The notes beneath the pieces are model-generated. The model did not search any database. It saw only the letters and a program-made list of their open reading frames with translations, and had not been told where the DNA came from. A stretch of 64,000 nt of DNA. Origin: Alphaproteobacteria bacterium. Lineage in GTDB: Bacteria > Pseudomonadota > Alphaproteobacteria > UBA2966. The stretch is taken from positions 2,560,001 through 2,624,000 of the forward strand of contig OZ219856.1 in the NCBI GenBank assembly GCA_964291395.2. The letters run 5' to 3'. This document shows positions 11,185 through 61,538 of the stretch, in pieces; the stretch's first letter is position 1, and the number at the start of each line of letters is the position of its first letter. A program made the position numbers and the translations under genes.

Positions 11185-11190
11185 CCGGCG

Positions 11191-29593: not shown

Positions 29594-30589
29594 CTAGCTT
29601 TCGAGTTCGGACGGCCGCTCGACGGGGTCGGGCTCCTGCCGGTTCGCGAAAGACTTGGTCTTGTCGAAAATATGATCGCCTTCCCCGAACGCATCGGCGC
29701 TGGCGCCCACGATCAGAGGATCGGGATGGCCCACGACGTGGAGATCCTTGTCCGCATAGGGCAGCGCCGAGAGAAAGTGCCTCATGCAGTTCAGCCGGGC
29801 GCGTTTCTTGTCGTCGGACTTGATAATCGTCCAGGGCGCGTCGGCGGTGTCGGTATAGAAGAACATGGCCTCCTTGGCGTCGGTATAGGCCTCCCACTTG
29901 TCCAGCGACTGACGGTCGACCGGCGACAGTTTCCACTGTTTCAGGGCGTCGTTCTCCCGAGCCTCGAAACGGCGTCTCTGCTCCCCTTGCGTGACGGAAA
30001 ACCAGTATTTGAACAGGATGATTCCACTGCGCACGAACATGCGCTCCAGCTCCGGCGCCTGACGCATGAACTCCAGATACTCCTTGGCGTTGCAGAACCC
30101 CATCACCCGCTCGACGCCGGCGCGGTTGTACCACGAGCGGTCGAACAGAACGATCTCGCCACCTCGCGGCAGGTGGCGGATATAACGCTGGAAAAACCAC
30201 TCGGTCTTTTCGCCTTCGGTCGGCTTGTCGAGCGCCACCACACGGGCGCCGCGCGGATTGAGATGCTCGGTGAACCTCTTGATGGTCCCGCCCTTGCCGG
30301 CGGCATCCCTTCCTTCGAACAGGATGACGACCTTCCCCCTCGTCTCCTTCACCCACTCCTGGACCTTCAGCAGCTCCACCTGCAGTTCGGCCTTCTGCTT
30401 CTCGTAGACCTTGCGGGTGAGTTTCTGCTTGTAGGGATACTCGCCGGTCTCGAAAATCCGGCGAATGGCGTCGTGGTCCCGGCGCAACGCAGCCACGGTA
30501 TCCGCGTTGCCGGCACCGTCCCCGCCACGAGTGGTTCCGGCCCCCAACTCATCCGCCGACGGCCTTCCGGCGGCATTCGCTTTCACCAT
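29594..30589 (-). CDS. ppk2: Polyphosphate kinase 2
   Basis: FEGRDAAGKGG, FDRSWYNRAGVERVMGF, WKLSP, KKRARLN. Confidence 0.96.
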   Translation of the reverse strand: MVKANAAGRPSADELGAGTTRGGDGAGNADTVAALRRDHDAIRRIFETGEYPYKQKLTRKVYEKQKAELQVELLKVQEWVKETRGKVVILFEGRDAAGKGGTIKRFTEHLNPRGARVVALDKPTEGEKTEWFFQRYIRHLPRGGEIVLFDRSWYNRAGVERVMGFCNAKEYLEFMRQAPELERMFVRSGIILFKYWFSVTQGEQRRRFEARENDALKQWKLSPVDRQSLDKWEAYTDAKEAMFFYTDTADAPWTIIKSDDKKRARLNCMRHFLSALPYADKDLHVVGHPDPLIVGASADAFGEGDHIFDKTKSFANRQEPDPVERPSELES

Positions 30590-33469: not shown

Positions 33470-33715
33470 ATGCGCACCGTTTCTCTCATGATCGCCAACC
33501 AGGAGTTCTCCAAGCTGATCAAGGAAGTCGAGCATGGCGAAGCCGTCGTGATCACTCGGCGCGGTCGCCCCATAGCCAAGCTGGTGCCCCATACGGCCGA
33601 CAAGACCGCAGATCCGGAATGGGCGGCCGCCTACAGGCGGATGATGGAGCGGCTGGAGGAAGGCGCTCCGCTCGGCGGACTGCGGGTCGAGCGGGACGCT
33701 CTCTATGACCGTTAA
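33470..33715 (+). CDS. Phd/YefM family antitoxin
   Basis: FSKLIKEVEHGEAVVITRRGRPIAKLVP; overlaps a PIN toxin gene. Confidence 0.9.
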   Translation: MRTVSLMIANQEFSKLIKEVEHGEAVVITRRGRPIAKLVPHTADKTADPEWAAAYRRMMERLEEGAPLGGLRVERDALYDR

Positions 33716-34163
33716 GGGTCGCTTCTCGCTCGACACGAACATCCTCGTCTATGCCGTTGATCGCGATGCGGGCGAACGCCACCGGCGATCCAGGGAGCTC
33801 ATGGGGCAGGCCGCTCTGCGCGACTGCGTGCTCACGGTCCAGGCACTCGCGGAGTTCTTCCATGCGACGACACGGAAGAACCTCCTCGAGCCCGAGCACG
33901 CAAGTGCCTTCGTGCGAAGCTGGCTCGACGTGTTCAAGGTCGCTTCGGCAGACGATTCGGCTCTCCTCGACGCCATGGACGCGGTCGAGGAGCATCACCT
34001 TTCTTTGTGGGACGCCATGCTCTGGGCCGCGGCCCGGCAGACTGGCTGCTCGGCCATCCTCAGCGAAGACACGCAGGACGGCCGACGTCTGGGCGGCGTC
34101 GAGTTCATCAATCCTTTTGTCGGTGACGCCGCGACCCGCCTCACGGCGCTGCTTGAAGCATGA
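33705..34163 (+). CDS. vapC: PIN-domain (VapC-like) toxin
   Basis: LDTNILVY, QALAEF, SLWDAML, SED, INPF. Confidence 0.9.
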   Translation: MTVKGRFSLDTNILVYAVDRDAGERHRRSRELMGQAALRDCVLTVQALAEFFHATTRKNLLEPEHASAFVRSWLDVFKVASADDSALLDAMDAVEEHHLSLWDAMLWAAARQTGCSAILSEDTQDGRRLGGVEFINPFVGDAATRLTALLEA

Positions 34164-36081: not shown

Positions 36082-36415
36082 AATTGCGCCCCGAATCCGA
36101 CCGGCCCTCACGTTTGGCGCGACGCGTAGAGTTGGAGTCGTAGTTCTCTCGGTCGCCGGCGCGTTCCGCGTCGCCTTCGCCGCACAGAGCGGAACACGCC
36201 CTGACTCGGCCTCGACCGGGTCGTTTCGATATCGGCGGAAACGGGTCTTATGAGTCTGGCCCGACCGTCCCGTGCCGATCTTCAACATATAATGCGAGAA
36301 CTTGCCGTCGCCGCCCTATGCCGTCAAACTCCGGGTAGGAATACCGCCTCGTCGAATCGTCCACGATGACGACGTCCGGCGCATGTGGTGGTCGTTCAAA
36401 AGGAGACAGACCAAA

Positions 36416-37816
36416 GTGGCGATTAATCGACACATCCATACCGGTTTTGGTTTTCGGTCTTTGGGGATCAGTGCCCTTACTGGTCTTTTGGCCGTTTCGT
36501 TCTTGGCGTTTTTTCCGAGTGAGGCGCAGGCGGCCCTGGACGGTGAAGCCCAGTTCGTTCTGAACAGCTTTTCGTTCCTGATCTGGGGGGCGCTGGTGAT
36601 GTGGATGTGCGCCGGGTTCACCATGCTCGAATCGGGCTCGGTGCGCACCAAGAACGCATCGGTGATCTGCCTCAAGAACATTGGCCTCTATTCCATAGCC
36701 GGTCTGATGTTCTACCTGGTCGGCTACAACATCATGTATGTCGGGGTCCCGGAAGGCGGCTGGTTCGGCACGCTGACTCTGTTCTACGGCACCACGGGCG
36801 ACGAGGTGACGCTGCTCGGCGGCGGCGACGACGCGGCCAAGGCGGGCGCGGCGGTGGTCAAGAACGGCTATTCGACGATGTCTGACTGGTTCTTCCAGAT
36901 GGTGTTCGTCGCAACCACCGCCTCCATCGTCTCCGGAACCCTGGCCGAGCGGGTCAAGCTCTGGTCCTTCCTCCTGTTCATCACCGTGCTGACCGCGATC
37001 ATCTACCCGGTCATCGGGTCGTGGACCTGGGGCGGCGGCTGGCTCTCGGCAATGGGCTTCCAAGATTTCGCCGGCTCGACGATCGTCCACTCGACCGGCG
37101 GCTGGGCGGCGCTCGCCGGCGCCCTGGTCGTCGGCGCGCGCAAGGGCAAGTTCCGCGAGGACGGCAGCGTGAAATCCACCCCGCCCTCCAACGTGCCGGC
37201 GGTGACGCTCGGCGTGTTCATCCTCTGGCTCGGCTGGTTCGGATTCAACGGCGGTTCGCAGCTGGCGCTCAGCGGCGCCGCCGATGCCGTGGCCATCAGC
37301 AACATCCTCGCCAACACCAATCTCGCGGCGGCCGCCGGCGTGCTCGCCGCGATGGCGCTGTCGCGGCCGGTGCTCGGGCGCGTCGACCTGCTGGCGAGCC
37401 TGAACGGCGCCATCGGCGGACTGGTGGCGATCACCGCGGGACCCGACATCGTCGACCACTACTGGGCGGTGGTAATCGGCGCGGTCGGCGGCGCCATCGT
37501 GGTACTCGGCGTGAAGGTGCTCGACCGGCTCAAGGTCGACGACGTGGTGGGCGCGGTTCCCGCGCATCTGTTCGCCGGAGTCTGGGGCACGCTCGCGGTG
37601 TGCATCGCCGCCGGGGGCAGTTTCCTCGTGCAGCTCACCGGGATCGTCGCCATCGGCGCGTTCGTGTTCGCCTCCTCCTGGATGGTATGGTGGGCGATCA
37701 ACATGACACTCGGCGCCCGCATCACGCCGGTGACCGAGGACCTGGGCCAAGATGTGGCGGAGCTGGGCATCGAGGCCTATCCCGAGTTCGTCGTCGTCCC
37801 CGACTCCGACGACTGA
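36416..37816 (+). CDS. amt: Ammonium transporter
   Basis: GFTMLESG, FFQMVF, SGTLAER, DFAGSTIVH, LWLGWFGFNGGS, DDVVGAVPAH; GTG start after aggaga. Confidence 0.95.
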   Translation: MAINRHIHTGFGFRSLGISALTGLLAVSFLAFFPSEAQAALDGEAQFVLNSFSFLIWGALVMWMCAGFTMLESGSVRTKNASVICLKNIGLYSIAGLMFYLVGYNIMYVGVPEGGWFGTLTLFYGTTGDEVTLLGGGDDAAKAGAAVVKNGYSTMSDWFFQMVFVATTASIVSGTLAERVKLWSFLLFITVLTAIIYPVIGSWTWGGGWLSAMGFQDFAGSTIVHSTGGWAALAGALVVGARKGKFREDGSVKSTPPSNVPAVTLGVFILWLGWFGFNGGSQLALSGAADAVAISNILANTNLAAAAGVLAAMALSRPVLGRVDLLASLNGAIGGLVAITAGPDIVDHYWAVVIGAVGGAIVVLGVKVLDRLKVDDVVGAVPAHLFAGVWGTLAVCIAAGGSFLVQLTGIVAIGAFVFASSWMVWWAINMTLGARITPVTEDLGQDVAELGIEAYPEFVVVPDSDD

Positions 37817-39120
37817 GAGGCGGACAATGCGTGAGGGTGAGTGGCGCCGTCCGGCGTGCCTTCGAAGATGAAGTCATTCAGAAAGATGCGCTGACCGAAC
37901 AGGTTACGCTCGACCTCGGTCAATCCAGCTTCCTTGCAGATGTCGTCCCATTCGTCCCGGATGGCGCCGATCTGCCGATCTATGATGTCCCTCGCCGCTT
38001 TCGCGCTGAGCTGGAAATTGGGCGCGGCCTCCAGGCAGGTCGCAAGCGTGCTCGTCCGATTGTCTCCGACGATCAACATCGCCTGGCTGGCCACATTGCC
38101 GGAACGGCTTTGCGGGCAGATGTCATAGGCAGGCGTCAGGGTCAGGCGTTCGCCGTCCCAGAAGCCCGCATGGTTGCGGGCGTGGTCGTCGGTATTGCCG
38201 CACAGGACGTTGAACACGAGCCGTCCGTAAAGCTCGTGCAACGTCGCCTTCGGCGAGGTGAAGCGGTGCCGAATGATTTCCGCGAGGACTTCATAGCTGG
38301 CGTAACGCGCCATCATTTCATCGAGACCGAACAGCGTCAGCGCCGAGACCATCGCCTTGCGCGTCCAGCCGTCTTTCGTCTTCACGCGGTCGAAACGCTC
38401 GACCAGCAGCACGTTCTTGCCGGCGACATGCGTAATACGCACGGGAGCGACGTCGAGCCCCGCCTTGGCAGCAAGGCGCATGGCGACATATTCCGCCTTC
38501 ACCACGTTATAGGTGTCGGTCGAAGACGAGAACTTGGCGATCATCTTCGTGTCGCCTTCCTGGATCGTCGCCTTCGGGCGCGCGCCGCCGAGCGACGTAC
38601 CGTGCAACAGCGCTTGATCGAGATCGGGCGTCAGCGGCACGCCATTCTCGACTTTCTCGGCGGCGCTCAGCAGCTCTTCGAGCGTCGCGGCTTGGACGGC
38701 GCGCGACACGTACTCGGAAGGGGAGCGCTGGAAGTCCAGGGCGCCGATTCGGTCGGAGCCGGACTCCGAGCAGATAGGTCAGCTCGTCGAGCGCAGCGGT
38801 GTCGACATGCATTGCCCTTGCGCCCGAAGGTCCGGTTCAGGATGACGCGACGGCCCCACGCATCCGGCGCGGCGTCGCGCAGACATCCGGCCATGCTCAG
38901 CCCGGCATTCGGGCGCAATCGCTCCGCTGCGCAGCGGCAGTTCCGGCTCGTAGATCGGAATGCGGTCATTCCGATCCAGATAGCTCTGGCCGTAGTTGAA
39001 GATCAGCCGCTCGCCGTCACGCGCGATTCGACCGGCGACGACCGGTGCCGTCGCGCCGGGCAGCCATACCCAGACATAGGCTTCCTCCGGCGCTTTCGTG
39101 TCGGGGCGATCAGAAGTCAT
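37777..39120 (-). pseudogene. hipA: HipA family kinase toxin disrupted by frameshifts at about 38760-38915
   Basis: Segments in different frames: AYVWVWLPG, LRDAAPDAWGRRVI, LDELTYLL, SDRIGALDF, SLGGARPKA, VERFDR, NTDDHARN, LTPAYD. Confidence 0.88.
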
Positions 39121-39448
39121 CCTTCACCTTCTTCGTTCCGGTGCGGACGGATTGCGGCAGCAGGGTGAGCTTGTCGCGTTCCATCGACAGATGGCGCGTC
39201 AGCGTTGTCGGTTCGGCTTGGAACAAGCGCAGCCCGACAATGGCGGCCACCTCGAAGGCCGCGCCGATGGAGGAGCCCATTTCGCCTTTTTCGATGCGGT
39301 GCACGAGGCCGCGCGAAGTCCCGGCGCGTTCGGCGACATCGGCGACCGTGATGCCGCGTTCGATGCGCGCGTTACGGATCATGAGCCCAAGAAGCTCTGC
39401 GGCTTCGCGGGCATAGCGGGAATAGCTTCTGTTTGCGGGCTTCGCCAT
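39110..39448 (-). CDS. XRE-family HTH antitoxin (HipB-like)
   Basis: IRNARIERGITVADVAERAGTSRGLVHRIEKG; overlaps the hipA start. Confidence 0.88.
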   Translation of the reverse strand: MAKPANRSYSRYAREAAELLGLMIRNARIERGITVADVAERAGTSRGLVHRIEKGEMGSSIGAAFEVAAIVGLRLFQAEPTTLTRHLSMERDKLTLLPQSVRTGTKKVKDDF

Positions 39449-39799: not shown

Positions 39800-40073
39800 G
39801 TGCTGATCCCGGTCCGGTCCACGCAATTCAGGCGCGACGTGAGGAGAGCGCAAAAGGCGGGGCAAGGACCTGACCTAGTTGCGGCCTCCGCTGACGGCAC
39901 CGATCCAACAGGAACCTTTGCCCGTGGGCTATCGCGATCATCCGTTGCGAGGGATCTGGAAAAGTTACCGGGAGTTTCATATCGAGCCCGAGTGGCTGTT
40001 GATTTACCGCGTCAAGGGAGACGAGTTGCATTTGGTCCGCACCGGGTCCCACGCCGACCTTTTCGATGAGTAG
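39800..40073 (+). pseudogene. yafQ: YafQ family toxin with a frameshift and an internal stop
   Basis: MLIPVRSTQFRRDV, then a shifted frame RGKDLT*L...YRDHPLRGIWKSYREFHIEPEWLLIY...RTGSHADLF. Confidence 0.85.
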
Positions 40074-40404: not shown

Positions 40405-40860
40405 AACGCTTGTTCAGGGTGTGACGAAATCGCTGTCCTCGAAATCTCGCTGACCAACGATCTTCAGGAGATCGCCGTCGCGGCGGAGCAAATCGAAGAA
40501 TTCTGCGCCGCGCGCGACCTGTCGCCGGCCATCGCCTACGCCGTCAACCTGTCGATCGATGAACTGCTGACCAACACGATCAACTACGGGTATGACGACG
40601 GCGTCCGGCACCGGATCGACATCGCGGTGCACATGGACGGGAGCGTCATCGTCGTCGAGATCACCGACGACGCCAAGCCGTTCGATCCGTCCGGAGTCGC
40701 GCAACCGGATACCGATATCCCGCTCGAGGACCGGCCGGTCGGCGGGCTGGGCATTCACTTGGTCCGCGAAATGATGGACGAGTTCCGATATCGCCGCAGC
40801 GGGGAACACAACATCGTGACCTTTACCAAAAACACGAAGGATGCCGGGACGGCGGTATAG
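40405..40860 (+). CDS. RsbW/SpoIIAB-like anti-sigma factor kinase (start codon unclear)
   Basis: LSIDELLTNTINYGY, DDAKPFDP, EDRPVGGLGIHLVREMMD, YRR...N; frame is open from 40405 without an early ATG/GTG/TTG. Confidence 0.82.
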   Translation, partial: NACSGCDEIAVLEISLTNDLQEIAVAAEQIEEFCAARDLSPAIAYAVNLSIDELLTNTINYGYDDGVRHRIDIAVHMDGSVIVVEITDDAKPFDPSGVAQPDTDIPLEDRPVGGLGIHLVREMMDEFRYRRSGEHNIVTFTKNTKDAGTAV

Positions 40861-40885
40861 GGGCGCCGGGAGTGGCGCCGTGCGG

Positions 40886-42832
40886 TCAATCGGGCTTGCC
40901 GTTGTAGCGTAGAACCAGACATGTGATGTCGTCCGACTGCGCCGCCTCGCCGACGAAATCGGCGACCGCGAGGGTCACGTTTTCGATCACGGCGTCGACG
41001 GAGATCTGGTTGCCGGTCGACAGCACGGTTTCCAGGCGCGCCTCCTCGAACATATCGCCGCCGACGTCCATCGCCTCGGAAATGCCGTCGGTGTAAAGGA
41101 ACAGCGTGTCCCCTATGGTAAGCGTCAGGCTGTTTTCCTCGTATGGCAGGTCCGGCATGACGCCGATCGCGACGCCGCCGGTCAACGGCAACGTCTCGAC
41201 CTCACCGTCCCGCCGAACGAGGAACGGCGCATTGTGACCGGCATTGGCGTAGGAGAAACGGCCCGTCCCGGGATCCAGAATACCGTAGAACAACGTGACG
41301 AACAGATCGTGGGGGTTCTGGGCGCAGATCCCGTCATTGACAAGGCGCAGGCAGGCGCCGGCCCGGTCCGTGTCGTTCGCGGCGGTGCGCGTGACCGTCC
41401 TCGCGATCGCCATGAAGAACGCCGCCGAGACGCCCTTGCCGGAGACGTCGGCGATCACCACGCCGAGACGGCCGTCCGGCAGGGTGAAGAAATCGTAGAA
41501 GTCGCCGCCCATCTCGCGCGCCGGGGTCATCAGGGCGTGCCCCGAATAGGCGTCGTGGCTCGGCATGGTCTTGGGCAGGATCGCGCCCTGCAGGGAATGC
41601 GCGATGGCCAGCTCGTCCTCCATGCGCCGTTTCGCCTGATCGAGTTCCGCGTTCTTCTCCTCGAGGTCCCGCGTGCGCGCCGCCACCAGGGCTTCCAGAT
41701 GATCCTCGCGCGCCTGGACCTCGCGGGCCATCGCCTGAAACACGCGGATCAGCCGTCCCAGCTCGTCCCGCCGGCGCCCGATGCGGTCGAGCGATTCCGG
41801 GACGAAACTGCGCCGGTCCATCTCCTCGGCCGCCTGGGTCAGCGCCATGACCGGCCGCGTGATGCGGCGGGCCGACAATATTGCGGTCACCGAGCCGACC
41901 AGGAAGGCGGCGGCCGCGACCATGAAGCCGAATCTGAGATAATCGGCAAGCAGTCGGTCCAACTGGTCGCGGGGCATGTGGATGACGGCAACGCCAGTGG
42001 CTACGCCGCCGCGGTCCAGGACGGGCGCGGCGACGTGGAGCGCATCGTCGCTCAGTACCGATTGCGCGCCCGCGTTCAGCGCCCGGCCGGCGAGCGACCG
42101 GTCGACCGCCAGGAACGCCGGCCCCGGCACACCGGCATGCGCGTCGGTCGCGACCGCAGCCGTCACCTCGAGAGAATCGTCAACCACCCAGATCGCCCGG
42201 ACTCCCGGTTGCCCGGCCAGCGAACCGAGCGCTGCCACCAGACCGAAGGTCTCGCGCAGGCCCGTGGTCTTGTCGGCCAGGCTGCCGACCAGCACCAATC
42301 CGCCGCTGCGGGCGCGGACGCCGACGTATTGCAGGGGCCGCTCCAACCCGTCCCGCGGCACCGGCCGAAGGGCGACGGAGAAGCGGCGTCCCGACAGGAG
42401 GGTCTGCAAGACCGGTCCGTCGATCTCCTCGAGCGCCATGCCGACGCCGGTCTGGCTGAGCCCATTGATGGCGCGCGCCGACGGCGCTCCGGTTTCGTCC
42501 AGTACCCAGATGTCGTCGATGACACTGTCCGACGTTATCTCCGCGAGGTGGATGGCAAGCCCCTTCGCGTCGCTGCCGACGACCTCGGCCAGGTGAGCCA
42601 GGGCGATCGCCTGCGCCTCGTTCTCGCGCGCGACGAAACGGTCGATCTCGTCGGATATCATGCCGGTCCGGTTGGCTTCGCCCGCGATCAGGCCGGCGAC
42701 GAGCCGTGCCTGATTCTCCGCCTGGTCGACCAGCGCATCGCGCGCCAGCAAGCCCATCGCCGTCGCCACGCCGAGAATGGCGACACCGACCGACGCCGAG
42801 ACGATCAGGATGAGATGCCGGGAGAGGCTCAT
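40886..42832 (-). CDS. Membrane sensor phosphatase: TM-periplasmic-TM-HAMP-PP2C (SpoIIE/RsbU-like)
   Basis: Two hydrophobic helices, HAMP (ITRPV...DELGRL), MGGDFYD, IADVSGKG, NAGH, LYTDG, DDIT. Confidence 0.93.
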   Translation of the reverse strand: MSLSRHLILIVSASVGVAILGVATAMGLLARDALVDQAENQARLVAGLIAGEANRTGMISDEIDRFVARENEAQAIALAHLAEVVGSDAKGLAIHLAEITSDSVIDDIWVLDETGAPSARAINGLSQTGVGMALEEIDGPVLQTLLSGRRFSVALRPVPRDGLERPLQYVGVRARSGGLVLVGSLADKTTGLRETFGLVAALGSLAGQPGVRAIWVVDDSLEVTAAVATDAHAGVPGPAFLAVDRSLAGRALNAGAQSVLSDDALHVAAPVLDRGGVATGVAVIHMPRDQLDRLLADYLRFGFMVAAAAFLVGSVTAILSARRITRPVMALTQAAEEMDRRSFVPESLDRIGRRRDELGRLIRVFQAMAREVQAREDHLEALVAARTRDLEEKNAELDQAKRRMEDELAIAHSLQGAILPKTMPSHDAYSGHALMTPAREMGGDFYDFFTLPDGRLGVVIADVSGKGVSAAFFMAIARTVTRTAANDTDRAGACLRLVNDGICAQNPHDLFVTLFYGILDPGTGRFSYANAGHNAPFLVRRDGEVETLPLTGGVAIGVMPDLPYEENSLTLTIGDTLFLYTDGISEAMDVGGDMFEEARLETVLSTGNQISVDAVIENVTLAVADFVGEAAQSDDITCLVLRYNGKPD

Positions 42833-43461
42833 TGTTGCCTCGCGGCCAGGCGGGCGCGCAGGGCCCGCATCGCCAGGGCCACGACCGCCGCGAAGGCGAG
42901 AAACCAGACCATGGCATAGAGATAGACCCAGAACGTAAACTCGGCCCTGCCTATCGCGCCGATCACGGTCTCGGCCCGGTGGACGAGTTCGGGCACGCCG
43001 ATGACCGAGGCCGTGGCGGAGGCCATGACGATGATCAGGAAATAGCTCGTCCAGGAGGGAAGGAACAACAGCGCCTCGGCGGTCTCGCCGCGCCTCAGAT
43101 GCCGCAGCGCGGCAAGCGCGTTGTCGGACACGTAACCGGCGACCGCGATCGCCAGCGCGAGCGACGCCTTGAACCAGGCCGGCACGGTGACGACGACGCC
43201 CAGAACCTCGAAGGTTCCGGGGACGGCATAGGCGAGATAGAACAACATGACGAAGGTCGGCGCCCCACGCGCGAACGCCGTGAGCGCGCTGCCGGTCTGC
43301 TTGACGCCCGGCGCGGTGCCGCCCCGCAGCGCCGCGAGCAGCAGGCCGACCGCCGTCCCGATCGCCATCGCGGCCAGCGAGACGATCATGTTCCAGCCGA
43401 AACCCGCCGCCAGATAGGGCGTCCAGGTGATCAGCACGTCGGCGACGTCCACCATCATCAT
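42829..43461 (-). CDS. Amino-acid ABC permease-like membrane protein lacking the EAA loop
   Basis: LAAGFGWN, ARGAPTFVML, ASVIGVPEL match the HisM/GlnP type, but the EAA-G segment is absent. Confidence 0.8.
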   Translation of the reverse strand: MMMVDVADVLITWTPYLAAGFGWNMIVSLAAMAIGTAVGLLLAALRGGTAPGVKQTGSALTAFARGAPTFVMLFYLAYAVPGTFEVLGVVVTVPAWFKASLALAIAVAGYVSDNALAALRHLRRGETAEALLFLPSWTSYFLIIVMASATASVIGVPELVHRAETVIGAIGRAEFTFWVYLYAMVWFLAFAAVVALAMRALRARLAARQQ

Positions 43462-45068
43462 GACGCGTGCTCCCGGTGCTCCCAGCGGCGGAAGATCCGG
43501 ACCGTGACGATGACCAGCACGAAATAGCAGATCAGCAGCAGGTTCATCATCACGTCATCGTTGCCTTTCTCGGCCACGATGGCGGTGCTGGCGTGCACCA
43601 GTTCGGGCAATGCCAGGGTGCTGGCCATGCCGGTCGCCTTGACGATGTTGACCGAATTGCCCATCACCGCGGCGTGGCACAGCCCCAGCGCGCGGCGGAT
43701 CTCGGCGATCCTGAAACCCAATCGGCTGCCCTCGCCGGCCGCCACGTCCGCCGCCAGAGCGAACGCGACGGCATTGCTGGCCGCGGCATAGAACGACAAG
43801 ACCACGGATGCGACCGTGAACGCGTCGAGCGAAAAGCCGAGCGCCAGGATGACGCCGCCAAGGCCAAAGAAGACGACATAGAGCTGCAGGAGCGGCGGCG
43901 TCATGCGCAAGGTCGCGCAAAGAGCCTGCAGGACGACCGCGACGACAGGGGTCCGTCGATGCATCAACCAGCCGAACAGAACACCCAGGCCTATGCCGCC
44001 CGCCACCGTCACGACGGACAGCGCGACCGTCAAGGCCAGGCCGAACAGAAAGATGTCGCGGTCCAACGGATCGTAGAGCAGGCTGACGTCGAGACCGGTC
44101 GCTTCCATCAACGTCAGGGAGACGCCCGAAATGCCGCCGAGCTCGCCGCCGGCGACCAGCGCGACCTCGCGGCATGCGAGCGGCCATTTTCCGGTGCCGT
44201 CGCGCCGGCAGACGAGATCGCCGGCCTCGTCGGTCTCCTGCCAGGTCAACCGGGCCCGCCGCAGATAGGGCGAGGGAGGCAACTCCCACCGCTTCTCCAG
44301 TTCCTGCAGAAAGCCTCCGCGATGCCATCCGGCGAGCGTATCGCCGAGCAGCCGGTCGAGGCTGCTGCCCGCCGCCTCCTTGGCGATGGCGACCGCCCAT
44401 GGGAACACGAAGCGCGTCGGCAGCGAGACGCCATAGCCCTCCCACTCGCCGCTCCTCAGCTCGTTCAGCAGGTTGACCTCGTCGTACAGCCAGCCGATGC
44501 AGTGCTCGTTGCGCAGGGCGAGCGCGGCCTCGCGCGTGGAGTTGAGAGAGATTGTCTCGACCAGCAGCCGTTCGCGGGCGAGGCGATTCCACAGCGAGCC
44601 CTGGACGCTGCACAGGGTGCGGCCCCGCAGGTCCGCCCAATCCGAGATCCCCGCATCCGGACGCAACAGGACGTTGGCGCCGTCGCCGTAGTACTGTGGT
44701 TCCACCATGTGGACGAGTTCCCGGCGGCTGCGGGTGTCGCCCAGTGTGGCGACGACGATGTCGATCTCGCCGCGCTGCAGTTTCTGCAGACGATTGGCGC
44801 TGGTCACCGGCGTCAACCGCAGCGAGACGCCGATGACTTCGGCGAAGGCGCGGGCGACGTCGACATCGTAGCCGACGAGGTTTCCGTCGGCGTCGGGGAA
44901 GCCGAAGGGCCGGTAGTCGGCCTTGACCCCGGCGATCAGATGGCCGCGCTCTCGGATCTCCTCAAGCCGGTCGGCCACGGCCGGGCCGGTGCCGCAAAGC
45001 CAGACGGCGACGGCGAGAATGACGAGGCCCGCGCGGTGGCGGGGACGGTCCCGGTCGGTCGCACTCAC
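43458..45068 (-). CDS. Fusion of a family-3 substrate-binding domain and an amino-acid permease-like domain with a degenerate EAA loop
   Basis: AGVKADYRPFGF, GYDVDVA, VTSANR; then GLALTVALS, RMTPPLLQLY, NIVKATGMAS, PEL. GTG start overlaps the upstream stop. Confidence 0.85.
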   Translation of the reverse strand: MSATDRDRPRHRAGLVILAVAVWLCGTGPAVADRLEEIRERGHLIAGVKADYRPFGFPDADGNLVGYDVDVARAFAEVIGVSLRLTPVTSANRLQKLQRGEIDIVVATLGDTRSRRELVHMVEPQYYGDGANVLLRPDAGISDWADLRGRTLCSVQGSLWNRLARERLLVETISLNSTREAALALRNEHCIGWLYDEVNLLNELRSGEWEGYGVSLPTRFVFPWAVAIAKEAAGSSLDRLLGDTLAGWHRGGFLQELEKRWELPPSPYLRRARLTWQETDEAGDLVCRRDGTGKWPLACREVALVAGGELGGISGVSLTLMEATGLDVSLLYDPLDRDIFLFGLALTVALSVVTVAGGIGLGVLFGWLMHRRTPVVAVVLQALCATLRMTPPLLQLYVVFFGLGGVILALGFSLDAFTVASVVLSFYAAASNAVAFALAADVAAGEGSRLGFRIAEIRRALGLCHAAVMGNSVNIVKATGMASTLALPELVHASTAIVAEKGNDDVMMNLLLICYFVLVIVTVRIFRRWEHREHAS

Positions 45069-45916
45069 GGAGCGCCCGGGAGCAGAGGTTTGCTCACTAT
45101 GAGAAATCCGTAGCCGCCGGCCGCGGGCACAAACCGGCACGCCAAGTCGTCGAGCCGGCCGAGCAGCGGCCTGCCGACGACGACACTCTCGGGCAGCAGA
45201 CTCTCGGGCTCGATGCTCTCGATTCGAAACCCCGCAGCCGAGAGGTCGTGCCGCGCCTCCGATGGAGAGAAGAGATGGTAGAACAGCCGGATCTCATCCG
45301 CGCCGCCGCCCCGCGTGTAGAGAACGTCTCCGGGCTCCAGTTCGCCGGCCCGGACCAGGGGGGCCACCGAGCGCTGTTCCGCTCGAAACCGCCGCCTCGC
45401 GTTCGGCAGGCCGAGGATCAAAACGCCATCCGGCTTCAGCATCTCGCGAACCGTGCCGAGCAGGCGCAGGCGCTGCTTCCGTCCGGCGACGTGCCCCAGA
45501 ACTCCGAAGGTCAAAAGCGCCAGATCGAACGCCCGCTCGTGCGTTTCGACCAAAGCCGCCAAGTCGCCGTTGCGGATGACGAGCCGTCCGTCGCCGACGA
45601 AGGCGCGCAAGCGCTCCGCCATCACCCGGCACGCCGCCGGGCAGACATCGTACGCCACGCCGCTCGCCCGGGTCAGTTCCATCAGCGGCAAGGTGTAGCG
45701 TCCGGTGCCGGCCCCGAAGTCGAGAAACCGGCCTCCTTCCCGCAGGCAGCGCAAGGATTTCCTCAACGTGCGCCTGTTCGGGCGCGGGTAGCGCCGGTCG
45801 TAGAGGCCCGAGGAGATGTAGGTATCGTAACCGCCGCGCACGTCCGGCACGCCCACCCGGGGCACGGGCTCGTCCTTGCCCATGGCGTCGGTAACGCCAC
45901 TGGGTACGCTCATCAT
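45065..45916 (-). CDS. Class I SAM-dependent methyltransferase
   Basis: FLDFGAGTGRY, AYD, FGVLGHV, MLKPDG, FYHLFS; RBS ggagga. Confidence 0.85.
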   Translation of the reverse strand: MMSVPSGVTDAMGKDEPVPRVGVPDVRGGYDTYISSGLYDRRYPRPNRRTLRKSLRCLREGGRFLDFGAGTGRYTLPLMELTRASGVAYDVCPAACRVMAERLRAFVGDGRLVIRNGDLAALVETHERAFDLALLTFGVLGHVAGRKQRLRLLGTVREMLKPDGVLILGLPNARRRFRAEQRSVAPLVRAGELEPGDVLYTRGGGADEIRLFYHLFSPSEARHDLSAAGFRIESIEPESLLPESVVVGRPLLGRLDDLACRFVPAAGGYGFLIVSKPLLPGAP

Positions 45917-46049
45917 TCCTCCTTTGGCCTCGGTCCGTCGGGGCTTGTCACCCAAGCGACTGTACCATTAGGCTACCGGCGTCGGTCCGACCCTACTATC
46001 GACTGTCCCAGGGAGCAATTCCTGAAATCACGTCGATGCCCTTGGGCGC

Positions 46050-47045
46050 ATGGCGAAGCAGGGCGGTCGCGAAAGGGCCGGGGACGAGAACCTGCGGACG
46101 CGCAACACCTCGATTGCCCATGGCGAAAAGGGGCGGAGATTGAGATCACGAGAGAACGGTTGGTCGCGAGCGCGGCGACTGGCGGCCCTGCCGATGTTGG
46201 CGGCGCTGGCGACGGTCCACGCCGGGGTGCATGCGGCGGACGGCGTCCTCGACCAGATCGCGGCCGACGGCGTGATGCGCGCGGGCACGAGAGCCAACGC
46301 GGCGCCCTTCGCCCAGAAGACGGCCTCGGGAGAGTTCGAGGGATTCTCCGTCGACCTGCTCGGGGAGATCCGTGCGGCGGCAGAGAGGACGGTCGGCCGG
46401 ACCGTCAGCCTCGAGCTTCACGAGGTGACCCCCGCCGATCGGCTGCAGCGCGTCGCCGCCGGTGAGATCGACATCGTCTGCGGCATCACCACGCCAACCT
46501 GGAACCGGGAAGACCTGGTGGACTTTTCCCTGCCGTTCTTCCGCGACGGTACCCGTGTCATGGTGTATCGCGGGCATGGAGACCGCGCCCTGGATCTCGG
46601 CCGGCTGAAGGTGGGCGTGGTGGAGGGCACCACCACCGTGACCGTCGTGAAGGATCGGCTGCCCGGCGCCAGCCTCCACGTCTACGCCAACATGGGCGAC
46701 GCGATGCGCGGGCTGGAGACGGGCGAGGTCGAGGGCGTGGCCAACGTCGGCGTCGTGCTGCTCGGGCTGGCCGAACGCAGCAAGCCGCGGCGCAGCGTCC
46801 TGCTGCTGCCGAGGACGCGCGCGTTGGCGACTGAGGCCCTGGCCTGCGTTCTACCGCAGAACGACAGCCGCTGGCGCGACCTGGTCAACAGGACCCTCGT
46901 CGGAATGTTCGCCGACGTGCAGGACTTCAACGGCCGCTACGAGGAAATCTACGATCACTGGTTTGGCCGCGACGGCGCGCTGTTCTATCCGCTCGACCGC
47001 GCGACGCGCGACTACCTCGGCAACGTCTCGATCTGGGCCAGATGA
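46050..47045 (+). CDS. Amino-acid ABC substrate-binding protein (GltI-like, family 3)
   Basis: RAGTR...PF, GFSVDL, VTPADR, IDIVCG, VDFSLP, GTTT, IYDHWFG; true start may be further downstream. Confidence 0.88.
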   Translation: MAKQGGRERAGDENLRTRNTSIAHGEKGRRLRSRENGWSRARRLAALPMLAALATVHAGVHAADGVLDQIAADGVMRAGTRANAAPFAQKTASGEFEGFSVDLLGEIRAAAERTVGRTVSLELHEVTPADRLQRVAAGEIDIVCGITTPTWNREDLVDFSLPFFRDGTRVMVYRGHGDRALDLGRLKVGVVEGTTTVTVVKDRLPGASLHVYANMGDAMRGLETGEVEGVANVGVVLLGLAERSKPRRSVLLLPRTRALATEALACVLPQNDSRWRDLVNRTLVGMFADVQDFNGRYEEIYDHWFGRDGALFYPLDRATRDYLGNVSIWAR

Positions 47046-49986: not shown

Positions 49987-51006
49987 ATGCGTCGCTGGAG
50001 ACTGGCAACCCGTTCGCGGCCTTGCGCCACTCGGCGTTTGAAAGAGAACCGGTTTCGCGGTGCGGCGGCATCGCCGTGCGCCGGGCGCCAAACTAGCCAG
50101 CGTCCCGTGGCGCATGTAGGATCGGCGGCGGCGCCTACGGGACGGCCCGCCGACCCGTATGCCGAGGGGGGACGCGCGATTCCGAGTTCTGACGACCGAG
50201 TCACGATCGACGAGGGAGGCGACCCCGCGTTCGAGCGGGGCGGCACGGCTCTGGCGGTCGAAGACGTGCACAAGAGCTTCGGCCCGGTCGAGGTCCTGAA
50301 GGGCGTCTCCCTCGGCGCGAACGATCACGACGTGGTCTCGATACTCGGCTCGAGCGGCTCGGGCAAGAGCACCCTGCTGCGCTGCATCAATCTGCTGGAA
50401 ACTCCCGATTCGGGCCGCGTGTACGTGAAGGGGGAACTCATCCGGATGCGCGAGAGCCGCCGGGGCGGCCCGGTTCCCGAGAATCCGAAGCAAGTGGAGC
50501 GGATACGCGGGAAGCTCGCGATGGTGTTCCAACAGTACAATCTATGGTCGCACATGACGGTCATTCAGAACGTCATCGAGGCACCGGTGCACGTGCTCAA
50601 GCTTCCCCGCGCCGAAGCCATCGAGCGCGGCGAGGAGGAGCTGCGACGAGTGGATATGTACGATCGCCGCGACTACTATCCGGCCCATCTTTCGGGCGGA
50701 CAGCAGCAGCGCGCGGCGATTGCCCGCGCTCTCGCGATGCAGCCCGACGTGATGCTGTTCGACGAGCCCACGTCGGCGCTCGATCCGGAGCTGGTCGGCG
50801 AGGTGCTGCGAGTGATGCGCGGCTTGGCCGAGGAAGGCCGCACCATGCTGGTGGTCACCCACGAGATGGGTTTCGCCCGGGAGGTGTCGGACCGGGTGAT
50901 GTTTCTCCATGAAGGCAGAGTGGAGGAGAACGGGAAACCGGACGAAGTGTTCCAGAATCCGAAGTCGGAGCGCTTCCGGCAATTCCTCGCCGGAACGTTG
51001 AGATGA
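49987..51006 (+). CDS. Polar amino-acid ABC ATP-binding protein (HisP-like); real start probably near 50180-50250
   Basis: [40 protein letters not shown]. Confidence 0.92.
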
Positions 51007-61131: not shown

Positions 61132-61470
61132 ATGGATGTTGCGACGGAACGGCAGGACGACGTCTTGTCGGTCCTGGTGAGCGGTCGCATTGACGGTTCC
61201 AATGCTGCGGCGTTCGAGGAGTCGGTTAGAGCGGCGATTTCGGACAGCGACCGAGCGGTGATCATGGACCTTGAGAAGCTTTCTTATATCAGCAGCGCGG
61301 GTCTTCGTGTTTTGCTGATGATTGCCAAGAATCTTTCGGGTCGGGACGCCAAGCTGGCGCTTTGCGCCATGTCGGATCAGATTCGGGAGGTTATCGAGAT
61401 AAGCGGTTTCGACAAGATCATCCCGGTTCACCCGTCCAAGGCCGAGGCGCTTGCGTCCCTGGACGGCTGA
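61132..61470 (+). CDS. STAS-domain anti-sigma factor antagonist (RsbV/SpoIIAA-like)
   Basis: SGRID, DLEKLSYISSAGLRVLL (phospho-acceptor Ser motif), EISGF. Confidence 0.93.
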   Translation: MDVATERQDDVLSVLVSGRIDGSNAAAFEESVRAAISDSDRAVIMDLEKLSYISSAGLRVLLMIAKNLSGRDAKLALCAMSDQIREVIEISGFDKIIPVHPSKAEALASLDG

Positions 61471-61538
61471 TCTGGTGGGGTGGGCGTTTTCTGCGCCTTG
61501 TTTGTGGTTCTGGGTGCCGCGACGCGGGGGTCTGAGGG

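Follow-up and report, generated by a model that had tools for sequence, protein, structure and literature searches.

A putative ATPase-less receptor derived from the transmembrane domains of an ABC importer and linked to a partner-switching module

The window analysed here is a 64,000-nucleotide stretch of the genome of an alphaproteobacterium (contig OZ219856.1, positions 2,560,001 to 2,624,000). It contains a four-gene operon flanked by two genes on the opposite strand:

45065-45955, minus strand: class I SAM methyltransferase, 296 aa, gene 1 of the operon (Pfam Methyltransf_12/23/25/11)
43458-45068, minus strand: fusion of a binding domain (SBP_bac_3) to a permease, called TMD-A here, 536 aa from GTG 45068
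42829-43461, minus strand: small permease homologue, called TMD-B here, 210 aa, ArtQ/HisQ-type fold
40886-42832, minus strand: HAMP-PP2C/SpoIIE phosphatase, 648 aa
40405-40860, plus strand: RsbW-like kinase or anti-sigma-type protein (HATPase_c_2), convergent with the phosphatase gene
46050-47045, plus strand: free ('orphan') family-3 solute-binding protein (SBP_bac_3), divergent from the operon

This arrangement had been described in a first-pass annotation of the window, and the open reading frames bear it out, including the convergent kinase and the divergent binding protein. Read directly from the minus strand, neighbouring genes of the operon overlap by 4 nt at all three junctions (GTGA 45068-45065, ATGA 43461-43458 and ATGA 42832-42829), and the phosphatase is translationally coupled to TMD-B. 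The tight junctions are not due to chance, because an overlap of -4 is available in 31 related loci between the methyltransferase and the fusion and in 34 between the fusion and TMD-B (taking at each junction the candidate start codon closest to -4).

Both membrane proteins are derivatives of ABC permeases of the polar amino acid type, as the annotation had claimed, and both retain the fold of ArtQ/HisQ. TMD-A consists of a signal or anchor sequence, a family-3 solute-binding domain, a linker that contains Cys, and a five-TM transmembrane domain of the ABC importer type. Its reading frame is open up to 45140, giving a 560-aa ORF. The N-terminus matches SBP_bac_3 (Pfam, E 1.2e-22) and residues 364-556 of the 560-aa ORF match TIGR01726 (E 3e-10) and the cystine permease model (E 5e-7) of NCBIfam. 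Pfam BPD_transp_1 is undetected on the C-terminal 280 aa even at E<=10. In the family alignment, Cys153/190, Cys287/299 and Arg, Asp and Thr positions of the binding domain are invariant. So is 'RMTPPLL', a motif typical of working permeases.

TMD-B has no Pfam match at all at E<=10, BPD_transp_1 included. It matches the NCBIfam cystine ABC permease over residues 7-208 (E 1.1e-10) and reaches 36.7 bits against TIGR01726, for which the cut-off is 42.2. Taken together, the NCBIfam models that match the two proteins are TIGR01726 and those of the cystine, ectoine and glutamine permeases. The TMD-B family profile finds ArtQ (4yms_D) at E 2.6e-6, and the AlphaFold2 model (pLDDT 78.6) has the same protein as its best match in the PDB (TM 0.71), followed by MetI. 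The TMD-B family is under constraint: 17 sequences with 49-70% identity to that of the window share 66 invariant columns. The invariant positions include 'PTFV.LFYL', another motif typical of working permeases.

The EAA loop, which couples the permease to its ATPase, is truncated or degenerate in both proteins:

approx. 43680-43751, minus strand: degenerate cytoplasmic loop of TMD-A (MAFFT alignment)
43066-43092, minus strand: what remains of the cytoplasmic TM3-TM4 linker in TMD-B (residues ~124-132)

We aligned the loops with five canonical permeases from the same genome using MAFFT. The TMD-A loop falls 10 residues short of the EAA loop in these paralogues and lacks the EAA---G / LPQA consensus. 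In TMD-B, 'GETAEAL' runs directly into 'LFLPSW', and the EAA/coupling loop has lost about 20 residues. The gaps span 10 columns in TMD-A and 20 in TMD-B, and all 14 family members aligned for each protein have them. The insertion of ArtQ relative to the TMD-B profile (19 residues, 'neaarslgmthamamryvi') falls exactly at the EAA loop. In the TMD-B model, a 5-residue helix (127-131) lies between helices 95-123 and 133-152, leaving a TM3-TM4 linker of about 9 residues. Few stretches of the family are as well conserved as this stub (invariant A130, L131, L132, F133, P135, W137, T138 and Y140). For comparison, hisQ and hisM of the window match BPD_transp_1 at ~1e-22 and ~1e-21.

The absence of an ABC ATPase in or beside the operon, also claimed in the annotation, holds both in the window and beyond it. 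There is no ABC ATPase gene between positions 39000 and 49900. The nearest one (~50245-51006; HisP, E 8e-105) heads its own complete hisP-hisJ-hisQ-hisM operon. A polar-amino-acid-type ATPase is found in 0 of 80 related loci, where the best HisP match within ~10 kb is 36% identical; in 16 of these loci the HisP match (26-29%) is znuC of a zur-znuC-znuB operon.

An ordinary importer of polar solutes could borrow its ATPase, either the HisP-type protein 5 kb away or a shared one, with the phosphatase as a co-regulated neighbour. Shared or orphan ATPases are known in other ABC families, for example those of the MsiK type. We consider this very improbable here. Throughout the family, the EAA loop is truncated or degenerate in both proteins, and the three polar-amino-acid-type ATPases of the genome (identities to HisP of 100, 48 and 44%) each adjoin their own canonical permease pair, while two orphan TMD pairs exist. 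In three related loci (L082-L084) a MalK-type ATPase gene adjoins the free binding-protein gene, which would favor a borrowed motor and counts against a pure receptor. This ATPase is of the sugar type and goes with a GH116 glycosidase.

The gene set recurs, in rearranged order, in the 80 related loci, which come from Alpha-, Beta- and Gammaproteobacteria. TMD-A is present in 79 of them, the free binding-protein gene in 74, and a PP2C domain within 5 kb also in 74; STAS is found in 51 and RsbW in 30, and one or the other lies within 9.5 kb in 54. The annotation had named recurrent linkage to SpoIIE, RsbW and STAS genes without an ATPase as support for its reading, and such linkage is seen here. 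Of the six loci that lack PP2C, four are truncated by the end of a contig.

The permease and the signaling enzymes are also joined in single proteins. A single ORF covers both TMD-B and the phosphatase in 13 of 72 related loci, where two different sequences are seen at the junction, and such proteins (853-855 aa, with SpoIIE) make up 22 distinct clusters at 90% identity. The fused state requires at least two changes on a quick tree. In other lineages TMD-B is fused to HATPase_c_2, the domain of RsbW-type kinases, in three clusters of 383-384 aa and in a 368-aa protein (P0127). In L082-L084 this fusion is located between TMD-A and the phosphatase. In-frame fusions of this kind would be unexpected for a plain importer.

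So would replacement of the transducer, which is seen in the two complete loci that lack PP2C. In one (L040), a gene for an MCP takes its place, 49 nt after TMD-B. In the other (L060), a 1003-aa protein with Peripla_BP_6 and an MscS channel is encoded 24 nt after TMD-B. Both keep the unit of binding-domain::TMD-A plus TMD-B. That PP2C gives way to an MCP or to a ligand-gated MscS-type protein in these loci points to signaling as the conserved purpose. A paralogous TMD pair in the genome of the window (L001) retains the binding protein, TMD-A and TMD-B and adjoins genes for RsbW and STAS, with neither a phosphatase nor a methyltransferase beside it.

The phosphatase (Pfam SpoIIE, E 2.2e-51; HAMP, E 2.2e-5) is the only SpoIIE-family gene product of the genome (one PF07228 match). 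It is composed of TM1, a dCache-like periplasmic domain (~residues 30-290), TM2, HAMP, a coiled coil and PP2C/SpoIIE. The periplasmic part of the model (pLDDT 80) has two PAS-like modules, and Foldseek matches it to the dCache domains of TlpQ, PctA, Tlp3 and KinD (1e-6 to 6e-11). The annotation had placed the phosphatase where the ATPase would sit. This part of its interpretation is not supported in the form given: the phosphatase is a receptor-type protein with two TMs, a HAMP linker and a dCache-like domain of its own, not a soluble protein docking at the NBD site, and in the fusions it is attached to the C-terminal end of the small permease.

The modeled dCache-like domain could detect ligands independently of the TMD pair. 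It might be the real sensor, possibly together with the free binding protein as in LuxP/LuxQ, and the TMD pair might be a scaffold or modulator that has lost its ligand function. Consistent with this, the free binding-protein gene directly adjoins that of the phosphatase as arranged in the beta/gamma and Stellaceae loci and in L078-L081, and in the alpha loci the TMD genes and the methyltransferase form a separate tight unit. However, the binding domain fused to TMD-A is well conserved in every locus examined (SBP_bac_3, 1e-19 to 1e-27), and the loci with MCP- or MscS-type proteins and the paralogous locus keep the TMD unit without the phosphatase. We regard this reading as unlikely.

The remaining components are those of a partner switch and the free binding protein. 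The RsbW-like ORF matches HATPase_c_2 over profile positions 2-127 of 127 (E 2.5e-26; residues 17-142 of the stop-to-stop frame) and NCBIfam RsbW at E 7.5e-8, far below the cut-off. Its stop is 25 nt from that of the phosphatase. The frame has no ATG, GTG or TTG before 40627; a candidate start is ATC 40429, with AGGG upstream, and the orthologues in L002, L003, L005 and L006 also lack a canonical start. The free binding protein matches SBP_bac_3 at E 3.3e-21, and its nearest NCBIfam model is the GrrP orphan binding protein (E 5.6e-38; 130.7 bits, with the cut-off at 190). In the window, no STAS gene adjoins the operon; the nearest lies in a separate pair:

61132-61467, plus strand: STAS (Pfam STAS, E 4e-22; tblastn)
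61539-61961, plus strand: second RsbW-like kinase (HATPase_c_2, E 2.6e-25)

The genome has four RsbW-like and eight STAS hits. This pair is the nearest candidate substrate and partner for the phosphatase in the window, and may be linked to the operon functionally.

The coupling loops are lost and the TMD pair is wired, and in related bacteria fused, to a phosphatase and a kinase; therefore, it is most likely a ligand receptor and not a transporter. We favor, as a reasonably probable explanation, an ATPase-less receptor that is built from ABC transmembrane domains, is operated by binding proteins and feeds a partner switch. The annotation's interpretation is thus partly supported, and the loop truncations and the natural fusions to the phosphatase and to RsbW add to its case. 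The receptor would be built from the membrane-spanning half of an ABC importer of polar amino acids, as a TMD-A/TMD-B heterodimer without EAA coupling loops, probably assisted by the free family-3 binding protein. The binding domains would capture a ligand, likely carboxylate- or amino-acid-like, and then dock on the TMD pair, which would signal instead of transporting substrate, with nothing crossing the membrane. A conformational change in the pair would be passed to the dCache-HAMP-PP2C phosphatase beside it, which together with the RsbW-like kinase would set the phosphorylation state of STAS proteins, the output of the switch. We infer the direction of this regulation, as we do the ligand and the identity of the STAS substrate.

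Some observations fit this receptor less well. The paralogous pair has no phosphatase beside it, the window has no operon-adjacent STAS, and the RsbW-like gene has no canonical start. The motifs 'RMTPPLL' and 'PTFV.LFYL' would also fit a residual translocation path. The methyltransferase (longest ORF from TTG 45955, with alternative starts at ATG 45916 and 45913; generic methyltransferase clusters only in the ESM Atlas) is cytoplasmic, and its leading position in the operon would be more readily explained by the entry of a small molecule into the cell.

In a somewhat unlikely alternative, the TMD pair combines signaling with ATPase-free transport, as a binding-protein-dependent facilitator or channel. 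The presumed role of the methyltransferase would be to modify the imported compound, and the phosphatase and kinase would read the occupancy or flux of the transporter. The importer fold and the permease-type motifs are conserved, and the fusions and synteny fit such a protein as well as they fit a pure sensor. The methyltransferase gene is present in 56 of the 80 loci by synteny and in L084 is accompanied by another permease, of the Xan_ur_permease family. However, we know of no type I ABC importer TMD that translocates without its NBDs, and the swap of PP2C for other signaling proteins counts against this reading. The methyltransferase, at 56 loci, is an accessory gene; it is missing in 24 (8 of them short or cut) and in the paralogous locus, so the core can do without it.

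The putative receptor can be compared with several known systems. The HisQMP2, Art(QN)2 and GlnPQ importers share its TMD fold, with ArtQ (4yms) as best match in sequence and structure, and are encoded alongside a free family-3 binding protein. In GlnPQ-type importers, binding domains are fused to the permease, and GlnP resembles TMD-A in having the family-3 domain at its N-terminus. Unlike these importers, the system described here has no ATPase gene, EAA loops shortened by ~20 and ~10 residues, no detectable BPD_transp_1, and genes coupled or fused to PP2C and RsbW-type enzymes.

Membrane receptor phosphatases of partner switches include SiaA of the RsbU/RsbW/RsbV-type SiaABCD pathway of Pseudomonas aeruginosa (bioRxiv 10.1101/674879 / PMC7647112) and chlamydial RsbU (PMC11619594). 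Our phosphatase resembles these in having HAMP and PP2C with a periplasmic sensor domain, and an RsbW-like kinase and STAS are present. The closest NCBIfam model of our phosphatase is SiaA (E 2.3e-32), at 112 bits against an equivalog cut-off of 700. The operon differs in having no diguanylate cyclase or sigma factor gene beside it. Our literature searches found no partner switch with membrane partners derived from ABC permeases or with permease::phosphatase or permease::kinase fusions.

Transporter homologues that have lost transport and serve as sensors are known. UhpC of E. coli, with UhpB, and Ssy1 and Snf3/Rgt2 of yeast are ligand receptors that control a signaling enzyme. They are homologues of MFS or APC secondary carriers, whereas the pair described here comes from a primary ABC importer that has lost its ATPase and retained its binding proteins. 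In LuxP-LuxQ, TorT-TorS and BvgS, periplasmic binding proteins capture the ligand for a signaling pathway; BvgS has fused Venus-flytrap (family-3) domains, and the double PAS/dCache periplasmic domain of our phosphatase, encoded near a binding-protein gene, is reminiscent of LuxPQ. There, however, the binding protein touches the sensor kinase directly. BceAB-BceS and PstSCAB-PhoU-PhoR are co-sensing ABC systems with ATPases, in which the transporter is a complete ATP-driven machine. In contrast to all of these, we propose that a TMD heterodimer without NBDs stands between the binding domains and a Ser/Thr phosphatase/kinase pair.

Based on an analysis that was computational throughout, we think it fairly probable that a heterodimer of ABC-importer transmembrane domains (TMDs), lacking an ATPase, relays ligand occupancy to a phosphatase and a kinase that set the phosphorylation of a STAS protein. 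In the proposed mechanism and ALTERNATIVES, the binding-protein-operated, ATPase-less TMD heterodimer would sense ligand occupancy and signal to a dCache-HAMP-PP2C phosphatase and an RsbW-type kinase, and these two enzymes would determine the STAS phosphorylation state. The window (C1:2560001-2624000; GC ~65%) lies in a 4.16-Mb, three-contig genome with an estimated contamination of 9%. Four ORFs are arranged head to tail on the minus strand (45955-40886).

Features of the operon and its surroundings in the window
45065-45955, minus strand: class I SAM methyltransferase (Pfam Methyltransf_12/23/25/11)
45068 (GTG) to 43458, minus strand: binding-domain fusion, 536 aa; N-terminal SBP_bac_3 (E 1.2e-22) and a hydrophobic C-terminal half, TMD-A
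42829-43461, minus strand: TMD-B, hydrophobic, 210 aa, with NCBIfam permease matches
40886-42832, minus strand: phosphatase, 648 aa, HAMP and SpoIIE/PP2C (SpoIIE E 2.2e-51)
40405-40860, plus strand: frame of the RsbW-like kinase, complete HATPase_c_2 (E 2.5e-26)
46050-47045, plus strand: free family-3 binding protein, SBP_bac_3 (E 3.3e-21), divergent from the operon
~50245-51006: HisP-type ATPase (HisP model E 8e-105), the nearest ABC ATPase, followed by hisJ, hisQ and hisM
61132-61467, plus strand: nearest STAS gene, in a STAS and RsbW-like pair extending to 61961

The layout proposed in the first-pass annotation was borne out. Read directly on the minus strand, the three junctions have the claimed 4-nt overlaps (GTGA, ATGA and ATGA). 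The RsbW-like frame, said to converge on the 3' end of the operon, ends 25 nt from the phosphatase stop, and the second family-3 binding protein is divergent, as claimed. No ABC ATPase gene is in or beside the operon at the window locus, again as claimed. The nearest one belongs to a complete importer, because hisJ, hisQ and hisM follow it and its permeases match BPD_transp_1 (E ~1e-22 and 1e-21).

Several other genes are found nearby. The RsbW-like gene has toxin-antitoxin genes as its neighbors: on the minus strand a HipA_C kinase (37777-38709) and an HTH/HipB-like gene (39110-39448), and on the plus strand a YafQ-type toxin frame (39879-40073). The YafQ-type frame aligns to profile positions 34-88 alone and could be truncated or contain a frameshift. 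One base at 39852 is absent from contigs of sequencing runs X1 and X4. The window also has a Phd/PIN pair at 33470-34163 and, upstream of the locus, genes for the polyphosphate kinase 2 PPK2 (E 4e-103) and an ammonium transporter (29594-30589, minus; 36302-37816, plus). RNA-library contigs from runs X1 and X2 (sponge metagenome) and X3 (coral metagenome) contain pieces of the operon at 95-100% identity, and X1 contigs span the TMD-B/TMD-A and TMD-A/methyltransferase junctions. Because one X1 contig also crosses the divergent intergenic region, the contigs are compatible with DNA carry-over and are not proof of transcription.

TMD-A and TMD-B descend from the TMDs of type I importers in the polar-amino-acid family, based on matches to NCBIfam models and to ArtQ by profile and by structural model. 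Pfam (E<=10) matched neither TMD-B nor the last 280 residues of the fusion; BPD_transp_1 went undetected because that profile is centered on the EAA region, which is missing here. TMD-B matches the NCBIfam cystine ABC permease over its full length (residues 7-208; E 1.1e-10). Matches to TIGR01726, the N-terminal domain of His/Glu/Gln/Arg/opine permeases, reached 36.7 and 40.4 bits, narrowly missing the cut-off of 42.2, and both TMDs also match, more weakly, NCBIfam models of ectoine, glutamine, glutamate and arginine permeases. A profile built from 19 family members matches ArtQ of the Art(QN)2 amino-acid importer (4yms_D; E 2.6e-6), which is also the top PDB match of the AlphaFold2 model of TMD-B (mean pLDDT 78.6; TM 0.71), followed by MetI. 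The fold is that of five-TM permeases of the HisQ/HisM/ArtQ type, and family-3 binding partners are encoded both in the fusion and in the divergent gene.

In type I importers, the coupling helix, which docks into the ATPase, sits in the EAA loop. This loop is lost in both TMDs, which argues against canonical docking of a nucleotide-binding domain (NBD) on either one. In the profile alignment, ArtQ has 19 additional residues precisely at its EAA loop. When 14 TMD-B and 14 TMD-A sequences were aligned with five canonical permeases of the window's genome, the canonical pattern was GQxEAxxAxGxxxxQxxRxVxLPQA. TMD-B has a 20-column gap there, passing directly from GETAEAL to LFLPSW, and TMD-A has a 10-column gap across EAA itself and no LPQA. 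Thus 19-20 residues are gone from TMD-B and 10 from TMD-A, and neither retains the EAA---G...LPQA consensus. In the TMD-B model, TM3 (95-123) is joined to TM4 (133-152) by ~9 residues containing a five-residue helix. Eight positions in this stub (A130, L131, L132, F133, P135, W137, T138 and Y140) are invariant in 17 sequences with 49-70% identity to that of the window; the stub loop is thus not in decay. Considered as an ABC importer, the system has the fold and the binding proteins but lacks the coupling loop and the ATPase, both of which are defining for the family. It could nevertheless be a transceptor that still passes substrate, as the conserved permease motifs and the cytoplasmic methyltransferase would suggest. 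We regard this as unlikely and prefer the receptor model given at the outset.

The search for a cognate ATPase was extended to related loci, obtained by scanning one genome per prokaryotic species with one peptide pattern and keeping the best 80 of 100 stretches. No HisP/GlnQ-type ATPase gene, that is, none more than 36% identical to HisP, was found within ~10 kb in any of the 80 loci; by comparison, identity to HisP is 44-48% for the genuine polar-amino-acid ATPase paralogues of the window's own genome. In 16 alphaproteobacterial loci, an ABC-ATPase match (26-29% identity to HisP) lies on the far side of the free binding-protein gene, at a distance of 4.3-6.4 kb from TMD-B. We rejected this gene as the cognate partner: it is the znuC of a zur-znuC-znuB operon. 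In locus L030 it is the middle gene between a FUR-family regulator and an ABC-3 gene (the match itself being ABC_tran), and the same three zur-znuC-znuB-like genes are present in all 16 loci. Every other ATPase match in the ~10-kb range is 5 kb or more distant and does not exceed 36% identity to HisP. The window's genome encodes three polar-amino-acid-type ATPases, each adjoining its own canonical permease pair, and two orphan TMD pairs, the window's and that of a paralogous locus (C1:2149232-2153500).

The family is sizable. TMD-B has 129 relatives at E<=0.001 in a collection of 5.8 billion proteins, and a precomputed Pfam domain is present in none of the 120 among the matches listed. Homologues from Aquamicrobium zhengzhouense and Pseudochelatococcus sp., which would be culturable carriers, are among them. 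Against 1.84 billion representatives, the family profile found 51 proteins at E<=1e-30; the number rises to 927 at E<=1e-3, where the weaker matches grade into ordinary permeases. The hosts of the 80 loci, as labelled, are alphaproteobacterial MAGs (including Defluviicoccus, Rhodospirillales and Stellaceae), Accumulibacter, Competibacteraceae/Contendobacter, Propionivibrio, Rhodoferax and Comamonadaceae; two loci labelled Anaerolineae and Phycisphaerales are probably mis-binned contigs. We dropped the idea that the family is confined to wastewater PAO/GAO organisms: the closest relatives of the window, and the runs that carry it, are labelled as sponge or coral. Gene starts in the related loci were assigned by a simple rule.

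Recurrence of the gene set in the 80 related loci (tblastn with the window's proteins, E<=1e-4, by which divergent partners can be missed)
TMD-A, within 2 kb: 79 of 80
Binding domain of the TMD-A fusion, within 3 kb: 78 of 80
PP2C domain, within 5 kb: 74 of 80
Free binding protein, within 6 kb: 74 of 80
Methyltransferase, within 3.5 kb: 56 of 80
STAS gene, within 9.5 kb: 51 of 80
RsbW-like gene, within 9.5 kb: 30 of 80
STAS or RsbW-like gene, within 9.5 kb: 54 of 80

Recurrent linkage to SpoIIE/RsbW/STAS genes with no ATPase had been named beforehand as support for the receptor reading; such linkage was found, with no polar-amino-acid-type ATPase. The N-terminus of the phosphatase was detected by tblastn in just 68 of the 80 loci. 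The gene set persists despite rearranged order, which indicates that it is functionally linked. The order in alphaproteobacteria is methyltransferase, TMD-A, TMD-B, phosphatase, with the free binding protein divergent; in Accumulibacter and Competibacteraceae it is TMD-B, binding protein, phosphatase; in Stellaceae a binding protein-phosphatase operon converges on the TMD operon; and in L078-L081 it is phosphatase, binding protein, methyltransferase, TMD-A, TMD-B. In the ESM Atlas, the methyltransferase fell into generic class I methyltransferase clusters alone and gave no functional lead.

The paralogous locus (L001:6190-10464) encodes a binding protein, TMD-A' and TMD-B' that are 71%, 89% and 85% identical to those of the window. 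It has convergent RsbW-like and STAS genes and neither a phosphatase nor a methyltransferase gene, and a GPP34-family gene and a DEAD-box helicase gene are upstream. The GPP34 (Golgi phosphoprotein 3 family) gene recurs near clusters of the alpha type (L001:5437-6180, L002, L004, L005 and L031); it adjoins RsbW/STAS in L004 and L005, and in the paralogous locus it immediately precedes the free binding-protein gene.

Gene fusions provide the strongest evidence for physical cooperation of the TMD with the partner-switch enzymes, because these Rosetta-stone fusions occur in many species and involve two partners of one pathway. In a search of representative proteins, TMD-B is followed by HAMP and SpoIIE in one relative (P0121, 855 aa) and by HATPase_c_2 in two others (P0123, 384 aa; P0127, 368 aa). 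At least 28 longer relatives are listed, 22 of 853-855 aa with SpoIIE and three of 383-384 aa with HATPase_c_2. The 22 SpoIIE fusions were found in different assemblies, the contigs reaching 6.9 Mb in length; NCBI names one simply "SpoIIE family protein phosphatase [Defluviicoccus sp.]". The TMD-B frame is open through the phosphatase in 13 of the 72 loci that have PP2C on the same strand, with two kinds of junction sequence (L003-L005 versus L008, L010-L012, L014-L018 and L020). In a quick maximum-likelihood tree of the phosphatase with SH-aLRT support, the fused state requires at least two changes, and the unfused gene of the window has the fused L003-L005 clade as its sister group (SH-aLRT 97). 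The fusions are topologically sensible, since TMD-B ends in what we take, by homology to ArtQ and MetI, to be the cytoplasm and the phosphatase begins with a short cytoplasmic segment ahead of TM1. Three metagenomic loci (L082-L084) have a divergent free binding protein, TMD-A, TMD-B fused to the RsbW-like kinase, the phosphatase (4-nt overlap) and, on the opposite strand, STAS. Among more distant TMD-B relatives (E 1e-18 to 1e-21), P0212 and P0239 (~650 aa) carry a C-terminal NMT1_3 (TAXI-like binding protein) fusion.

The output gene can also be exchanged. Six loci have no PP2C, four of them cut by contig ends. The two complete ones keep the methyltransferase, TMD-A and TMD-B, with another gene where the phosphatase would be. 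In L040 this gene, 49 nt downstream of TMD-B, encodes a methyl-accepting chemotaxis protein (MCPsignal E 2.3e-22); in L060 it lies 24 nt downstream and encodes a 1003-aa Peripla_BP_6 and MscS-channel protein. Homology between the periplasmic domains of the L040 chemoreceptor and the phosphatase cannot be claimed; the profile match is weak (probability 45%) and covers only the last sensor strands, TM2 and HAMP. A downstream transducer that varies in this way is typical for sensory input modules and not for nutrient importers. The loop truncations, the fusions and the output swaps make an ordinary importer with a borrowed ATPase very unlikely.

The phosphatase has a SpoIIE domain spanning profile positions 1-191 of 192, and its translation contains the metal-binding motifs GDFYD, DVSGKG, TDG and DDIT. 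An AlphaFold2 model of residues 1-400 (pLDDT 80) has a long helix, two PAS-like alpha/beta modules and a second TM helix leading into HAMP. Foldseek matched it to the dCache ligand-binding domains of TlpQ, PctA, Tlp3, KinD and vpHK1S-Z8 (E 6e-11 to 1e-6; TM 0.27-0.48 by target length), and the Pfam dCache models gave no match, so the periplasmic region is predicted to be dCache-like at the level of fold alone. The long helix and the PAS-like modules lie between two TM helices. The phosphatase is therefore itself a protein of the receptor type. The first-pass suggestion that it occupies the ATPase's place is not supported in that wording, since the enzyme is a receptor and not a soluble substitute for an NBD. 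The dCache domain could be the true sensor, possibly paired with the free binding protein in the manner of LuxPQ, the TMDs being accessory. We consider this improbable and favor the TMD heterodimer as the sensor. A complex prediction for TMD-A (320-536), TMD-B and phosphatase residues 1-400, one copy each and without controls, scored 0.00 and counts neither way.

The kinase is of the HATPase_c_2 serine kinase (RsbW/SpoIIAB) type. RsbW equivalog models gave 27-32 bits against cut-offs of 145-155, so the kinase is RsbW-like and no orthologue of RsbW. Its frame has no ATG, GTG or TTG ahead of HATPase_c_2 (which begins at residue 17 of the stop-to-stop frame), and a canonical start is equally absent from the four closest orthologues (L002, L003, L005 and L006). 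The N-terminal peptide AEI[AS]VLEISLTNDL is conserved among the orthologues, and in L020 a GTG occupies the aligned position two codons further on. Translation probably begins at a near-cognate codon, the candidate being ATC at 40429, ~8 nt after AGGGTG.

As a partner-switch input, the locus has both the phosphatase and the kinase. No STAS gene adjoins the window operon, the nearest of eight STAS hits in the genome being the one at 61132-61467, and no sigma factor gene was seen among the annotated neighbors. The phosphatase is the only SpoIIE-family gene in the genome, and tblastn found four RsbW-like as well as the eight STAS hits; the operon is therefore probably the only source of phosphatase input to the partner-switch network of this organism. 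The STAS and RsbW-like pair at 61132-61961 has a copy with identical tblastn scores (G000:C3:1052636-1053462), reflecting either recent duplication or assembly/binning redundancy. In two Stellaceae loci (L053:~10700-11500; L077:14073-14852), one 259-aa ORF contains HATPase_c_2 (12-136) and STAS (155-251) and looks like a kinase-substrate fusion.

In beta- and gammaproteobacterial loci, a glgX-type isoamylase gene is flanked by STAS genes. The cluster is 4-9 kb from a GlcNAc-2-epimerase-like gene, STAS and glgX in 17 Accumulibacter and Competibacteraceae/Contendobacter loci. This block is downstream in L042, L048, L052, L056, L062-L064, L067 and L070, and upstream and inverted in L045, L047, L050, L057, L059, L066, L069 and L072. 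The nine loci with a downstream block have a further STAS and RsbW-like gene; in those with an upstream block, glgX is cut by the end of the sequence. Beta and gamma hosts share 87-91% identity in GlgX, which suggests lateral transfer, and the partner switch is possibly tied to glycogen debranching.

We speculate, with slightly less than even confidence, that NBD-less ABC-importer TMDs form an unrecognized class of bacterial receptor. In this class, a TMD heterodimer operated by binding proteins would have exchanged its coupling loops for a new, conserved cytoplasmic stub. The transducers that it serves would be interchangeable: a PP2C phosphatase, an RsbW-type kinase, a chemoreceptor or an MscS-type channel. 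In the polyphosphate and glycogen accumulators Accumulibacter and Competibacteraceae, it would drive a STAS switch set amid glycogen-debranching genes, and storage-polymer cycling would thereby respond to a nutrient cue from outside the cell. The family is present in sponge-associated Alphaproteobacteria as well as in Accumulibacter, Competibacter and Contendobacter, three groups known from wastewater phosphorus removal. It may bear on the timing of storage-polymer metabolism in those groups because it adjoins STAS and glgX genes there. Present annotation hides the family, TMD-B having no Pfam domain and the fusions being named "SpoIIE family protein phosphatase". The natural 855-aa permease-phosphatase fusions are ready objects for structural study.

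The closest curated model to the phosphatase is SiaA of Pseudomonas (NF038263; E 2.3e-32), but the score is 112.4 bits against a cut-off of 700, and the phosphatase is not a SiaA orthologue. No GGDEF/diguanylate cyclase gene, as in a siaBCD-type neighborhood, was found among the annotated neighbors. Receptor PP2C phosphatases are already known, examples being SiaA (bioRxiv 10.1101/674879; PMC7647112) and chlamydial RsbU (PMC11619594). The first-pass remark that no described system with this layout was known agrees with our literature search, in which most subscription journals were outside the scope: the components are known singly, and we found no description of TMDs from an ABC importer that have lost their ATPase and become coupled or fused, as a pair, to the enzymes of a partner switch. 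Family-3 binding domains are used in signalling by BvgS, binding-protein-dependent sensors include LuxPQ and TorTS, and transporter-like sensors include UhpC, Snf3/Rgt2 and Ssy1. In ABC importers, the permease functions solely together with its ATPase. To our knowledge, the signals that feed partner switches outside the Firmicutes are mostly unknown. If our reading is correct, the family would provide a new type of input for partner-switching pathways and a new evolutionary route from transporter to receptor, an ABC counterpart of UhpC or Snf3/Rgt2.
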